A stretch of DNA of 64,000 nt. Source: Gammaproteobacteria bacterium (GTDB lineage: Bacteria; Pseudomonadota; Gammaproteobacteria; Eutrophobiales; Eutrophobiaceae). This document shows positions 1 through 38,370 of the stretch, in pieces (within the stretch, counting starts at the first letter, position 1; each line of letters starts with the position of its first letter). Both the position numbers and the translations under genes were made by a program. The stretch lies in contig OZ244905.1 of assembly GCA_965221695.1 (NCBI GenBank), positions 2,848,001 through 2,912,000 on the forward strand, in the 5' to 3' direction. Under the pieces are notes generated by a model. It saw nothing but the letters and a program-made list of their open reading frames with translations. It had not been told where the DNA came from and ran no database searches.

Positions 1-1053
1 TTGCAGTTTACCGGGGGCACTACCGGCAGAGCCAAAGGCGCTTGTATCAGCCACCATTCCCTGTCCGTCAACCTGAGCCAGCGCGAGGCGATTTTTCCCA
101 CCCGAGACGATGTGGAACGGATGTTGTGCATCATGCCGCTTTTTCATTGTTATGCGGTGTCCATGTGCCTGCATGCCATGGTATATCGGCGCGGCGCCCT
201 GGTAATCCTGCCGCGTTATCATCCCACAGAGGTCGTTGCCGCCCTGGTCAACGAGAAGATCAGCGTGTTCGCCGGCAGCCCCACGGTTTTTACCGGACTG
301 CTGAATTATCCGGACTTTGCCGGAGCCGATTTTTCCAGTTTGTATATCTCCTCTTCCGGGTCGGCGCCTCTGGCGGAAAACATCCTGAACAAATGGGAAA
401 CGATCACCGGCACGCCGATACTCGAGGGTTACGGCCAGTCCGAGGCAGGCCCGGTCATATCTTTCAACCCGCTACATGGGATCAGGAAACCAACCTCGGT
501 GGGTATCCCCGTGCCGCAAACACAAATCCAGATAGTTGATCTTGAGACCGGCGAGAAAGTTCTGGAAGCCGGACAAAAAGGCGAGATCCGGGTGGCCGGT
601 CCCCAGGTTATGCGCGGTTACCGCAACCGTCCGGAAGAGACAGCCCAGGCATTGCGCAACGGTTGGTTGTACACCGGTGATATCGGCGAACTGGACGAGG
701 ATGGCTACCTGTATATCCGCGGCAGGAAAAAAGAAATGCTGCTGGTATCGGGCTATAACGTTTTTCCCCGGGAAATCGAGGAAATCCTGCATCAGAATCC
801 AAGTGTGAAAGAAGCGGCCGTGGTTGGCAGGACGGATACCTACCGCGGTGAGTTGCCCGTTGCGTTTATCGTCCCTGTTGCGGAGAGCAGCGCGGATGCG
901 GAATCGTTGCAGGGATTTTGCAAGAAAAATCTGGCGCCCTACAAGATTCCGGCGGAGTTCCGCCTGTGTGAAACGTTGCCAAAAACCGTGGTAGGCAAGG
1001 TGGACAAAGTCGCCCTGACACAGATGGCAAACGGCGCAACAGGCAACGGGTAA
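1..1053 (+). CDS. Long-chain fatty-acid--CoA ligase / AMP-binding enzyme (5' end outside window)
   Basis: ANL motifs FTGGTTGRAKG, EGYGQSE, WLYTGDIG, LPKTVVGKVDK. Confidence 0.9.
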   Translation: MQFTGGTTGRAKGACISHHSLSVNLSQREAIFPTRDDVERMLCIMPLFHCYAVSMCLHAMVYRRGALVILPRYHPTEVVAALVNEKISVFAGSPTVFTGLLNYPDFAGADFSSLYISSSGSAPLAENILNKWETITGTPILEGYGQSEAGPVISFNPLHGIRKPTSVGIPVPQTQIQIVDLETGEKVLEAGQKGEIRVAGPQVMRGYRNRPEETAQALRNGWLYTGDIGELDEDGYLYIRGRKKEMLLVSGYNVFPREIEEILHQNPSVKEAAVVGRTDTYRGELPVAFIVPVAESSADAESLQGFCKKNLAPYKIPAEFRLCETLPKTVVGKVDKVALTQMANGATGNG

Positions 1054-1070
1054 CAAAACGTGCGGGGCTA

Positions 1071-1315
1071 TGGCCCGGATTTCTCACCAGGCGATGCGAT
1101 GATTGCGCCGGATTTTTTGCGCCTGCAGGCGCCTGCGACCGATAGCATAGCCGTAGCTCTGGTTGAGGGAGCACGTGCCCGCAGGCGCAAAAAAGACAAG
1201 CAAGGGCGCATCGAGCGCAGTATGTAATGTTGAGATCGCGACCATACTAAAATGACTCATTGACAGCACATATGTTTCAGTTAGCAACGAGCGGCCTGGT
1301 GAGAAATCCGGGCTA
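1071..1315. mobile_element. 245-bp MITE-like structured element, copy 1
   Basis: Terminal inverted repeats tggcccggatttctcaccagg / cctggtgagaaatccgggcta; gap-free homologue at 13851-14095. Confidence 0.85.
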
Positions 1316-1349
1316 TAATAATCCCGTGTTGATCCAGGGCGCCCGGGAA

Positions 1350-3389
1350 ATGCCGCGCAGGATCGGCATTGTCGGCGCCGGGACCATCGGCCCGGATATC
1401 GGTTATTACCTGAAAAGCGCCATCCCTGGCTTGAACCTTGTCTTGATAGATATCAGCCGGGACGCCTTGGACCGGGCCGTGGACAGAATCCATGCCTATG
1501 CGGACAAGGGCGTGGCCAGGGGAAAGCTGACTTCCGAGCAGGCAGAGGATGCGCGCCGGCACATCAGCGCTTCTGTGGACTACGACGACCTGACAGGATG
1601 CGATTGGGTCATTGAGGCCGCCACGGAAAATCTCGAACTGAAGAAACAGATATTCTCCACAGCGGAAGCCGTTATCGACAGGGAAAGCCTGATTACTTCC
1701 AACACCAGTTCCATCCCGGCCAACTTATTGTTTTCGCACCTGCGCTACCCCGATAGGACTACCGTTACCCATTTTTTTGCGCCGGCCTTCCGCAACCCGG
1801 TTGTGGAAGTGGTCGACTGGGAAAAAGCCGACCCGGGCCTGCTGCAACTATTACGTTGGCTGTTTTACATGACCGGCAAGACGCCAATCGTCACCCGCGA
1901 TGTGGTCTGTTTCATGCTCGACCGGATCTTTGACAACTGGTGCAACGAAGCCGGATTACTGCTCGGCCGGGCTACTCCGGCGCAGGTGGATAGCGTGGCC
2001 TGCGCTTATGTGCAGGCCGGGCCGTTCTTCGTGCTGAACATGTCCAACGGCAACCCGATCATCATTGAGACAAACTCCCTGCAGGCCGAATTCGAAGGCG
2101 CGCATTATCTGCCGGCAGACATCTTCCGGGAAGCGGAAGACAGAAAACGGGTGGCGCCGAACAACGCCTCGACTCACAGCGCGGAAGAAAAATGGGATGA
2201 ATCCGGAAACTGGTTGACCATCAACCCCGGGGAAACAGCGGACGCGCCGGAGCCGGTGGCGGCGGAAATCCGCGATCGTTTGCTGGGCGTTCTATTCTCC
2301 CAGAGTGTGGACATACTGGACCGGGACATCGGCGTCGCCGCGGATCTGGAACTGGGTTGCCGGCTTGCTTTTGCCTTTAGGAAAGGTCCGTTGGAACTGA
2401 TGCGAGACCTGGGCGAGGATGAAACCCGGCGCGTGCTGACCACATTCACCCGCGCCAGGCCCGGCATGCCCGCGCCGCAACAGCCGCTGCGCGCCTATCA
2501 GAGGTTTCGCCGTTTTATCCTTGTGGATGAGTTGGAAGAGGTAAAGATTATCAGTTTGCGCCGTCCGGAAGCCTTGAACGCGCTGCACGAAGAGATGACC
2601 GACGAGATCCTGGACCTGATCAATGAATACGAGGATGATCCGGGAGTCGCTGGTTTCATCATTACCGGCTACGGCGTCTCGGCTTTTTGCGCGGGCGCGG
2701 ATATCGGCAGGTTTCCTGCCATGCTCGGGGACTCGCAACGCAGCGCCGAGTATGCGCGTGCGTGTTCCCGCTTGCTCGTCTGCCTCGACAACTGCAGCAA
2801 GCCGGTGGTGGCAGCATTGAACGGCATGGCGCTGGGCGGCGGTCTGGAACTGGCCGTGCGTTGCCACGGGATGGTTGCCACGAACAATACCTGGTTGCAG
2901 TTCCCGGAAATCACTCTCGGCATCGCGCCCGGCCTTGGCGCTATGGTCGTTCCCTACCGGCGTTGGCCGGCCGCCGCGCAAGCGTTTCATGGTATGTTGC
3001 TAAAGGCGGAGAAGATGGGCGCGTCTGACGCGCGCCGGCTGGGAATTATCGATGAATTGGCAGGGGATCATTCCGACCTGATTCCGGCCGCAATGCGCCG
3101 GGTGCGGGAACTGGCGCGGCAACGCCACATGCTGCCCGGCAGTCCTGTGAGTATTGCCGAGCCTGCCGCGTCGGATGAGCCGCCTCACAGCGTCGATGGC
3201 GCCGCCCTGAGCCACGCTGTGACGACGATTATTCGCCGCGCGATCATGGATGCCGCCGCCGCTCCCTCGCTTGACGCCGCCCTGGAAACAGGTTACCGCG
3301 CATTCGGCGCCAGCGCTTGCACGGCAGCAGCCAGAGAGGGGATCGGCGCGTTCGTTGAAAAAAGAACGCCCGACTTTACCGGGCTCTGA
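1350..3389 (+). CDS. 3-hydroxyacyl-CoA dehydrogenase / enoyl-CoA hydratase fusion (dehydrogenase N-terminal, hydratase C-terminal)
   Basis: GAGTIG Rossmann motif, VIEAATENLELK, SNTSS, HFFAPA; C-terminal FCAGADI and ALGGGLELA crotonase motifs; start moved to the ATG outside the repeat. Confidence 0.9.
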   Translation: MPRRIGIVGAGTIGPDIGYYLKSAIPGLNLVLIDISRDALDRAVDRIHAYADKGVARGKLTSEQAEDARRHISASVDYDDLTGCDWVIEAATENLELKKQIFSTAEAVIDRESLITSNTSSIPANLLFSHLRYPDRTTVTHFFAPAFRNPVVEVVDWEKADPGLLQLLRWLFYMTGKTPIVTRDVVCFMLDRIFDNWCNEAGLLLGRATPAQVDSVACAYVQAGPFFVLNMSNGNPIIIETNSLQAEFEGAHYLPADIFREAEDRKRVAPNNASTHSAEEKWDESGNWLTINPGETADAPEPVAAEIRDRLLGVLFSQSVDILDRDIGVAADLELGCRLAFAFRKGPLELMRDLGEDETRRVLTTFTRARPGMPAPQQPLRAYQRFRRFILVDELEEVKIISLRRPEALNALHEEMTDEILDLINEYEDDPGVAGFIITGYGVSAFCAGADIGRFPAMLGDSQRSAEYARACSRLLVCLDNCSKPVVAALNGMALGGGLELAVRCHGMVATNNTWLQFPEITLGIAPGLGAMVVPYRRWPAAAQAFHGMLLKAEKMGASDARRLGIIDELAGDHSDLIPAAMRRVRELARQRHMLPGSPVSIAEPAASDEPPHSVDGAALSHAVTTIIRRAIMDAAAAPSLDAALETGYRAFGASACTAAAREGIGAFVEKRTPDFTGL

Positions 3390-13125: not shown

Positions 13126-13845
13126 TCAATACTCCCACTCAGCATAAGCAAGCGGCGCGCGCTTGAGCGCTTCTTTATGCAAGCGCCACTGTGGCATGAA
13201 GCTGTCCATCAGTTCCCGAAAGCGCGCATTATGGCGGCGTTCGATCAAGTGCGTGAGTTCGTGAACGAGGACGTATTCAAGACATGAGGTTGGTTTCTTG
13301 ATCAATTCCAGGTTCAACCAGATACGACCGGCCTTGATGTTGCACGAACCCCAGCGGGTTTTCATCTTCTTGATGCGGACCTCGCGCGCACGCACACCGA
13401 TCTCGGTTTCCCACTTCGTCAACAGCGCCGGCAGTCGGGCCTGAAGTTGGCGCCGATACCATCGATCAACCAGCGCCTCCCGCGCCGCTCTATCTGAACC
13501 GTGACGAACCTGTAACGTCATCGTATTGTTATTCGCCAGGCACACACCTGGTCTGCCGGCGCTTTCAAGCACATCCAGCCGATAACGCCGTCCTTCAAAG
13601 TAATGGCTTTCGCCAGTGACAAACTCGCGCTGGGACTGGCGTTCCTGCTCGGCAAGTTCCACTTGCTTTCTGTGAATCCATCCCAAGCGATCAACCACGG
13701 CCAACCTGATGGCATCGTCATCGAAGCGTAACGGCGCCGCCACCCGCACCCGACCGGATGGCGGGTATACCCCTACATACAGGTGTTTGATGTTCTTGCG
13801 GACGACCTCCACAGGTATCCCGCTGATGTCCATGTGCTGGCTCAT
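13126..13845 (-). CDS. YgjP/M48-like zinc metalloprotease (DUF45), a family often found in type I R-M loci
   Basis: MKTRWGSCN, LEYVLVHELTHL (HExxH); original GTG start probably cut off by the repeat insertion. Confidence 0.85.
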   Translation of the reverse strand: MSQHMDISGIPVEVVRKNIKHLYVGVYPPSGRVRVAAPLRFDDDAIRLAVVDRLGWIHRKQVELAEQERQSQREFVTGESHYFEGRRYRLDVLESAGRPGVCLANNNTMTLQVRHGSDRAAREALVDRWYRRQLQARLPALLTKWETEIGVRAREVRIKKMKTRWGSCNIKAGRIWLNLELIKKPTSCLEYVLVHELTHLIERRHNARFRELMDSFMPQWRLHKEALKRAPLAYAEWEY

Positions 13846-13850
13846 TGCTT

Positions 13851-14095
13851 TAGCCCGAAAATCTCACCAATTGATGCGATGATCGCTGAGGATTTTTTGC
13901 GTTAGCGGGTGCTCGCGACCGAAAGCATAGTGGTTCTTCTGGTTGAGGGAGCATGTGCCCGCTAACGCAAAAAAGACCAGCGAGGGCGCATCAAGCGCTG
14001 TGCGTAATGGCAACATACTCGGCAGATTACCATAACTCATTGACAGCAAACATCTATCTGATGCTAACAAGCGAATTGGTGAGATATTCGGGTTA
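13851..14095. mobile_element. 245-bp MITE-like structured element, copy 2
   Basis: Terminal inverted repeats tagcccgaaaatctcaccaatt / aattggtgagatattcgggtta; removing it and keeping one TA restores an in-frame GTG AGT ACT AAA GCA ATG start for the adjacent gene. Confidence 0.85.
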
Positions 14096-14099
14096 GTAC

Positions 14100-38293: not shown

Positions 38294-38370
38294 GCGCCTG
38301 TAGCTCAGTTGGATAGAGTGCTGCCCTCCGAAGGCAGAAGTCACAGGTTCGAATCCTGTCAGGCGCGCCA
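38294..38370 (+). tRNA. tRNA-Arg(CCG)
   Basis: 77-nt cloverleaf: GCGCCTG/CAGGCGC acceptor stem, CTGCC-CTCCGAA-GGCAG anticodon arm, GGTTCGAATCC, 3' CCA. Confidence 0.97.

Follow-up and report, generated by a model that had tools for sequence, protein, structure and literature searches.

Two structured repeats in a gammaproteobacterial genome are probably miniature elements of an IS1380-family insertion sequence with a hairpin constrained on one strand

Hairpin-forming MITEs are well known in bacteria, and several families of small repeats can be compared with the element described here. Both the Correia and the ERIC repeats are TA-duplicating, and ERIC repeats vary in length through inserts at internal sites. 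REPINs move in single-stranded form through the action of RAYT proteins, which are HUH tyrosine transposases, and produce no target duplication. The IS1380 family of insertion sequences (ISs), of which IS1380 and ISEcp1 are examples, generates duplications of 4-5 bp.

Published accounts add structural detail for some of these systems. The bcr1 repeat of Bacillus is presented, in the passages of PMC3184786 that concern it, as mobile, ~155 bp long and flanked by duplications of 5 bp, its double-stranded RNA fold being maintained by compensatory changes. For REPINs too, such changes between the two sides of the hairpin are given as common in the corresponding part of Bertels and Rainey 2011 (PMC3116915). 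MITEPye1 of Paracoccus yeei, as outlined in a section of PMC11578231, is a MITE derived from the IS1182 family that has a predicted long stem-loop and occurs in 1-3 copies per chromosome. Finally, a portion of PMC10813416 uses IS1380 transposases as the prokaryotic outgroup to piggyBac, in whose elements a TTAA tetranucleotide is conserved.

The DNA analysed here (the window) is a stretch of 64,000 nucleotides from a gammaproteobacterial genome (G000) that comprises one contig of 3.54 Mb with 55% G+C. It contains two copies of a repeat, copy A at 1071-1315 and copy B at 13851-14095. A first-pass annotation, made from the sequence alone, had described two repeats of equal length that align without gaps and match at about 180/245 positions; both copies are 245 bases long, their alignment is gapless and the identity is exactly 180/245. 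The paired stem differences that it reported are all present in the sequence of both copies: from copy A to copy B, GGC/GCC becomes ATT/AAT, TTGC/GCAA becomes TCGC/GCGA and, in the inner stem, TTTTTTGCGCCTGC/GCAGGCGCAAAAAA becomes TTTTTTGCGTTAGC/GCTAACGCAAAAAA. Its interval of 245 bases stands as a measured length, but the outermost 3 bases at each end belong to a 4-bp target-site duplication and not to the element, which is 239 bp long (CCCG...CGGG) and occupies 1074-1312 in copy A and 13854-14092 in copy B. The predicted folds reach -122.7 kcal/mol for copy A (z -9.2) and -108.4 kcal/mol for copy B (z -7.9), with 0/200 shuffles as good in either case. The same annotation had offered an undescribed MITE family, a structured RNA or a scaffold with a guide-like loop as explanations, and our analyses support the MITE option: both copies are probably non-autonomous MITEs of an IS1380-family IS that carry a selected one-strand fold. 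The parts of the two copies are as follows.

1068-1071, + strand: left direct repeat CTAT of copy A, the same CTAT as at 1313-1316
1074-1312, + strand: element proper of copy A, 239 bp, CCCGG...CCGGG, A-type subfamily
1074-1092, + strand: left terminal inverted repeat of copy A, which pairs with 1294-1312 and whose first 14-17 nt are those of the ends of the IS1380-family parent
1093-1213, + strand: covarying hairpin domain of copy A (family positions 23-143), 38 pairs
1214-1293, + strand: 3' domain of copy A without conserved fold (alifold consensus empty), which contains the 'variable loop'
1253-1263, + strand: TGACTCATTGA, the copy A version of the conserved block TAACTTATTGA, right border of the 'variable loop'
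1294-1312, + strand: right terminal inverted repeat of copy A
1313-1316, + strand: right direct repeat CTAT of copy A
13850-13853, + strand: left target-site duplication TTAG of copy B
13854-14092, + strand: element proper of copy B, 239 bp, young B-type subfamily, with an ortholog at the same site in the relative G008
13854-13872, + strand: left terminal inverted repeat of copy B, which pairs with 14074-14092
13873-13993, + strand: covarying hairpin domain of copy B
13994-14073, + strand: 3' domain of copy B without conserved fold, including the block TAACTCATTGA at 14033-14043
14074-14092, + strand: right terminal inverted repeat of copy B
14093-14096, + strand: right target-site duplication TTAG of copy B

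The element shares features with each of the described systems and matches none of them entirely. Its parent scores as an IS1380 equivalog, with ends that begin CC and with 4-bp duplications common to parent and MITE, whereas the MITE carries no transposase and has an interior unrelated to the IS save for the 14-17-nt ends and an 11-nt block. With bcr1 of the Bacillus cereus group it has in common a small size (~155-245 bp across the two), short flanking direct repeats and a long compensated fold; bcr1 differs in its 5-bp duplications, in its known transcription and in that no parent IS is named in those passages of PMC3184786, whereas the element described here is known from DNA and has an identified parent. 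Correia (Neisseria) and ERIC (enterobacteria) repeats are also hairpin-forming MITEs, of 100-250 bp, for which the same passages give proposed effects at the transcript level and, for ERIC-type repeats, a TA motif at both termini (PMC3184786). Our element duplicates a 4-bp YTAR instead, its parent is of IS1380 type while those of Correia and ERIC are other or unknown, and its covariation and strand asymmetry have been quantified. REPINs differ in that our element has DDE-type ends and a 4-bp duplication, and an identity as a REPIN was rejected on that duplication. MITEPye1 resembles it in being a MITE whose terminal repeats served to assign the parent IS and in its predicted long stem-loop; its parent belongs to the IS1182 family, its copy number is low and the part of that report concerned with it gives no covariation analysis (PMC11578231). 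A full-text literature search returned no description of an IS1380-derived MITE in the text portions that it covers; ISfinder and supplementary files lie outside that scope and a named entry may exist there. A search on the lineage name gave nothing on repeats by title or abstract among the papers listed. What is unusual about this MITE is the clear, strand-specific constraint on its structure.

The boundaries of the element are fixed by its target sites. We collected 97 unique full-length copies, 80 of them exactly 245 bases long. TA is present at both ends in 74 of the 97, and 48 of those 74 are flanked by identical 4-mers (TTAA 18, TTAG 16, CTAG 12 and CTAA 2). Among the 74 TA-ended copies, the nucleotides that precede the left and right TA agree in 57, and those that follow the two TAs agree in 64. 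These matched 4-mers indicate a duplication of 4 bp at YTAR and hence the element length of 239 bp. An empty site in G008 confirms the 4-bp duplication, because ...cgataa CTAG tactc..., with its single CTAG, corresponds cleanly to ...cgataa CTAG (element) CTAG tactc... in the window's genome. The orientation of insertion relative to the asymmetric target is non-random, as intact duplications read TTAG 8 times as often as the reverse complement, CTAA (16 versus 2). G008 has copy B too, at the orthologous position. The intergenic site orthologous to that of copy A is empty in three other relatives (G004, G006 and G007), which are too diverged for the junction to be read. Copy A has an atypical left junction, with two extra G (1072-1073) between CTAT and the start of the element, and its CTAT target is not a canonical YTAR.

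The remaining characters are those of a MITE: a length of 239 bp (below ~600 bp), dispersed copies, terminal inverted repeats, the duplication with its empty site, and a non-coding interior together with an autonomous element in relatives that has the same ends. Seventeen terminal pairs are conserved across the 97 copies. The best reading frame is open in only 17/80 of the 245-bp copies, a count that excludes the 17 copies of other lengths.

Both insertions matter for annotation, since copy A displaces one gene start and a distance of 8 nt separates copy B from another. The gene affected by copy A encodes a 3-hydroxyacyl-CoA dehydrogenase/enoyl-CoA hydratase fusion (assigned by Pfam; window 1260-3389, + strand); copy A lies on its 5' end, with the junction at 1313-1325. 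In relatives this gene begins ATG CAA (GAT/CAG) TA(T/C) AA(T/C) AA(T/C) CC..., and these first codons are displaced in the window's genome. The frame is open into copy A, with an in-frame TTG at 1260, ATG at 1272 and GTG at 1299, and copy A may now provide the start codon of the fusion gene. The close relative G008 is without a 3-kb segment (window 323-3369) that takes in the end of a gene for an AMP-binding enzyme, copy A and the greater part of the gene downstream, and the flanks join there with an overlap of ~13 bases. The element proper of copy B begins 8 nt upstream of the start codon (ATG) of a YgjP-like metallopeptidase gene (- strand, ORF 13126-13845); a ribosome-binding site for this start, if any, would fall within the end of copy B.

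The parent was found by searching the genus for DDE_Tnp_1 transposases and then for the ends of the element. A transposase gene bounded by the same ends, which the first-pass annotation had named as evidence to look for, is indeed present in relatives, within an IS1380-type IS of 1736-1769 bp (1.74-1.77 kb) bounded by inverted CCCG(C/G)AT(A/T)TCTCAC.... The terminal inverted repeats of the MITE measure 19-25 nt, and their outer 14-17 nt equal the ends of this IS. Its 474-aa transposase matches NF033539 (IS1380) with E 1.3e-118 and 396 bits, against a cut-off of 180, and PF13701 with E 8.5e-151 and 502 bits. Both matching ends lie 1736-1769 bp apart in 12/17 IS1380-type loci examined, and 9 of those 12 ISs have identical 4-bp duplications (CTAG, TTAG, TTAA or CTAT), such that MITE and parent alike insert at YTAR and duplicate 4 bp. 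The conserved TTAA of piggyBac elements fits this target. A 4-bp YTAR target fits IS5 too; the only ISs found with the ends of the MITE are of IS1380 type, among the 30 of >290 PF01609 matches that were searched for ends, one of which was scored to family and proved to be IS1380-type. Against this parentage, the end variant of the B type, CCCGAA(A/T)ATC, occurs on none of the ISs examined.

A further link lies inside the ends. The block TAACT(T/C)ATTGA (TAACTTATTGA, with at most 2 changes), which is ~49 nt from the right end of the MITE, recurs 60-61 nt from the transposase-proximal end in 10/10 parent ISs, where it directly follows a TATAAT-like hexamer. The sense of the transposase corresponds to the - strand of the MITE. 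The remainder of the 3' domain aligns with the IS end no better than shuffled sequence does (37.5 versus 36.4 +/- 4.8). Two full IS1380-type copies were also seen in tandem, with one CTAG in common (L329, G004:C1:2866191-2870549).

Full-length matches to the transposase (>470 bits) occur in 9/23 genomes, with 10 in G004 and 6 in G003. The window's genome has 0 hits to PF01609, and its solo ends belong to copies that are truncated or miniature and have no transposase alongside. The sole trace of an IS1380-type transposase there is a 30-bit N-terminal fragment of PF13701 with a TAG stop (L336, G000:C1:880794-880961). Because only this relic is left, the copies in the window's genome are probably fossils. 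The MITE would be moved in trans by the IS1380-type transposase of its parent, and the window's genome would have become a resting place for such copies when it lost that enzyme.

The fold of the family divides into three parts. The terminal repeats consist of family positions 4-22 paired with 224-242, a long branched inner hairpin of ~120 nt occupies positions 23-143, and positions 144-223, the 3' domain, give an empty alifold consensus and single-sequence folds that are weak and mutually different. RNAalifold proposes 64 pairs, of which 29 have two-sided changes. Covariation was evaluated by counting standard pairs over the copies and by parsimony on a FastTree tree. Over the inner hairpin (38 pairs), a standard pair is present in 99.0% of 3686 cells, compared with 90.9% in shuffled controls and 30-49% when the partner is slid; two-sided changes affect 21/38 pairs (12.1 +/- 1.4 shuffled) and 269 cells (65.9 shuffled). 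Each of these values was reached in 0/500 shuffles, a control that overstates significance because the copies are related and that does not yield probabilities, though the margin is large.

The kinds of change reveal a strand preference. Parsimony assigns to the inner stems 85 pair-to-pair changes, 46 from a pair to G-U, 16 from a pair to A-C and 12 to other mismatches, and to the terminal repeats 27 to G-U and 4 to A-C. Over all stems G-U exceeds A-C by 73:20. The equivalent transitions in unpaired columns stand at 254:209 (Fisher p 1.7e-5), and the stem excess is therefore no mutation bias. For the inner stems alone the asymmetry has p 0.004. Cell counts agree, with 69 G-U versus 25 A-C in the inner stems and 34 versus 4 in the terminal repeats. 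Two neighbouring inner pairs are G-U in 79 and 90 of the 97 copies, with nothing but G-C or A-U in the others. The predicted fold is more stable for the + strand than for the - strand in 96/97 copies, with means of -120.8 and -107.8 kcal/mol. Pairing that is kept through G-U and rarely through A-C points to a constraint on one strand, written + here; the constraint on the inner hairpin acts on a single strand of fixed polarity. The asymmetric bulges and the apex are conserved, and unpaired apical bases are at least 90% conserved.

Selection on a multi-stem single-stranded fold, as initially proposed for the whole repeat, is thus supported for the inner stems, which show both covariation and the G-U excess, and not for the terminal stem or the 3' domain. 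The parent IS has matched end variants (GGATTT with AAATCC, GCATAT with ATATGC) despite their separation by 1.7 kb. Since ends co-vary over that distance, compensation in the terminal stem needs no fold, and what had been read there as evidence for one is ordinary co-variation of terminal inverted repeats. The accompanying argument, that recognition of ends by a DDE transposase would not by itself require such a fold, is sustained by the inner covariation and the strand-specific G-U excess, which go beyond end recognition. Private changes per site in the young subfamily, counted over 20 copies from the window's genome and G008 and therefore small in number, are 0.185 in the 3' domain (15 on 81), 0.147 in the terminal repeats (5 on 34), 0.125 in the 5' loops and 0.026 in the inner stems (2 on 76). 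Their scarcity in the inner stems hints at constraint or correction after insertion, which a model of pure need for transposition does not predict.

These observations bear on two other accounts of the hairpin. The inner domain might be a structured RNA (the product of a small RNA gene, or a cis-acting part of an mRNA) that is carried by transposon ends and functions for the host or against the transposase. The 73:20 asymmetry, the two adjacent G-U positions that are never mismatched, the conserved apical bases, the scarce private changes in the inner stems and the fact that the + strand is the complement of the block at the start of the transposase leader in 10/10 parent ISs would all suit an RNA. 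We nevertheless consider this unlikely: the copies have no Rfam match at gathering score over the whole window, or at E up to 1 over four loci with copies, neither copy A nor copy B contains a sigma-70-like promoter or an intrinsic terminator, and presence or absence varies among genomes in the manner typical of selfish insertions. Orientation relative to neighbouring genes is unbiased as well (upstream 32 same and 35 opposite, downstream 29 versus 37; 101 copies), which argues against a cis-regulatory role for the host. Somewhat less probable still is that the two-sided changes are unselected and that template switching, or mismatch repair in an extruded hairpin, copies one arm to the other. 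Such correction would accord with the 49/85 pair-to-pair events of the inner stems that fall on terminal branches, with one private two-sided change within a 95%-identical subfamily (copy L317) and with the short form of 165 bp, which is palindromic throughout. However, correction between arms is symmetric between strands and so is unable to explain the excess of G-U (73) over A-C (20); nor does it predict the greater + strand stability in 96/97 copies or the conserved asymmetric bulges and apex.

Two more proposals concern the ends and the loop. A scaffold with a programmable guide loop, of the type of the IS110 bridge RNA or the omega/reRNA of IscB/TnpB, would use a variable segment of 25 nt to name target or donor. 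The observation behind this idea was borne out, in that the segment enclosed by GTAATG...CATTGAC is nearly unrelated between copies A and B, nearly fixed in length and bordered by conserved blocks. The relation of the loop to its surroundings that such a guide entails was not recovered: the longest word shared by the loop with its own 40-nt flanks comes to 5.57, compared with 5.55 +/- 0.10 for the flanks of other copies (86/200 shuffles at least as high; 84 of 97 copies), and 5.54 versus 5.57 when 19 copies that adjoin other elements are removed. A second variable stretch gave 5.86 versus 5.46 (0/200 shuffles), a signal lost on dropping those 19 copies (25/200). The absence of a loop-flank relation and the fixed YTAR motif leave the guide idea without support; in addition, the 3' domain lacks a conserved fold and the partner is an IS1380-type DDE transposase, not IS110, IscB or TnpB, so that we regard a guide function as very improbable. 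A MITE of IS630/Tc1-mariner type that duplicates TA has an even smaller chance of being correct. Nearly all copies start and end with TA, tandem copies overlap and IS630-type transposases are present in 14/23 genomes of the genus, but the duplication is 4 bp and not 2, the empty site refutes this reading and the ends match IS1380-type ISs. As for an IS630 parent, 0/20 IS630 loci of the genus own these ends, the one hit (L067) being a MITE inserted beside an IS with unrelated ends, and PF13358, the IS630-type transposase family, has no hit in the window's genome.

The IS1380-type MITE family is widespread within its genus. The window's genome holds ~23 full or nested copies and many fragments, which fall into an older A type that includes copy A, with members 81-94% alike, and the young B-type subfamily that includes copy B, with members 93-97% alike and copies in both G000 and G008. 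Matches were found in 20/22 other genomes of the genus, in 0/2 genomes of other genera of the family and in 0/16 genomes of other families of the class. A 22-base pattern from the apex matched at least 116 stretches in a collection of species-representative genomes; among the 80 matches listed, 79 lie in records of uncultured Gammaproteobacteria (labelled Gammaproteobacteria, Pseudomonadales, Halieaceae or Candidatus Azotimanducaceae) and 1 in a record labelled uncultured Enterobacteriaceae. A plasmid collection gave no match to the element. The sole Rfam match in the window is a tRNA gene at 38294-38367.

Several variants were encountered. A short form of ~165 bp at four loci is without the 3' domain and is a palindrome from end to end, whereas in longer forms (317-465 bp) two other small hairpin repeats are nested within the element. 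These two families are ~72 nt each (G000:C1:2919444-2919524 and 2919571-2919642), and solo copies of such repeats occur elsewhere in the same genome, for example at 382646, 1137733, 1771111 and 2740877. At G000:C1:1539593-1539783 and near 3227000, a repeat of the form ...CCGTACCACT(T/C)CC...GGGAGTCCAGTCA(A/G)ATAC... has taken the place of most of a MITE copy whose counterpart in G008 is intact. At the site L099, the element in G000 is replaced by another repeat. Head-to-tail arrays with shared intervening bases comprise two copies at L140 (G010:C3:784978-785786) and three at L147 (G010:C3:104454-105264), an arrangement that would follow from insertion of new copies into the YTAR duplication of earlier ones.

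What the fold is for is far less certain than the identity of the MITE. We tentatively prefer, from the analyses above and at somewhat less than even confidence, that the lineages still transposing would be those whose + strand folds back. Folding could bring together the two ends that the transposase binds, or it could make a transcribed element a compact and harmless hairpin, as in Correia, ERIC and bcr1. The fold would then serve the spread and persistence of the element itself and not a host gene. The 3' third would be free to drift, save for the one block conserved in the parent IS, and it is this freedom that would make the 'loop' look variable. A role tied to replication finds little encouragement: the + strand is on the leading strand for 20/29 elements in the window's genome (p 0.06), and local GC skew over 176 elements does not repeat this lean (85 versus 91).

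RNA-OUT acts as an antisense brake on IS10, and a comparable arrangement can be imagined here. The + strand might itself be active, either as a transcript that brakes the parent IS in antisense or as a folded single strand that serves as substrate or cofactor of a piggyBac-like DDE transposase, and we hold this joint proposal to be improbable. In the antisense version, the covarying hairpin would be the stabilising scaffold of a + strand transcript, and the unstructured 3' domain would present the complement of the conserved block in the leader of the IS1380 transposase. If true, an antisense brake or a single-strand substrate or cofactor would be new for the piggyBac-like transposase superfamily.

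What had been an odd structured repeat thus becomes an annotated mobile element with a named parent, and the family may be the first MITE to be described for the IS1380/piggyBac-like family. Its one-strand pairing is not explained by a simple model of DNA-end recognition for a DDE transposon, and its 97 copies provide a clean data set on why many bacterial MITEs keep long hairpins.
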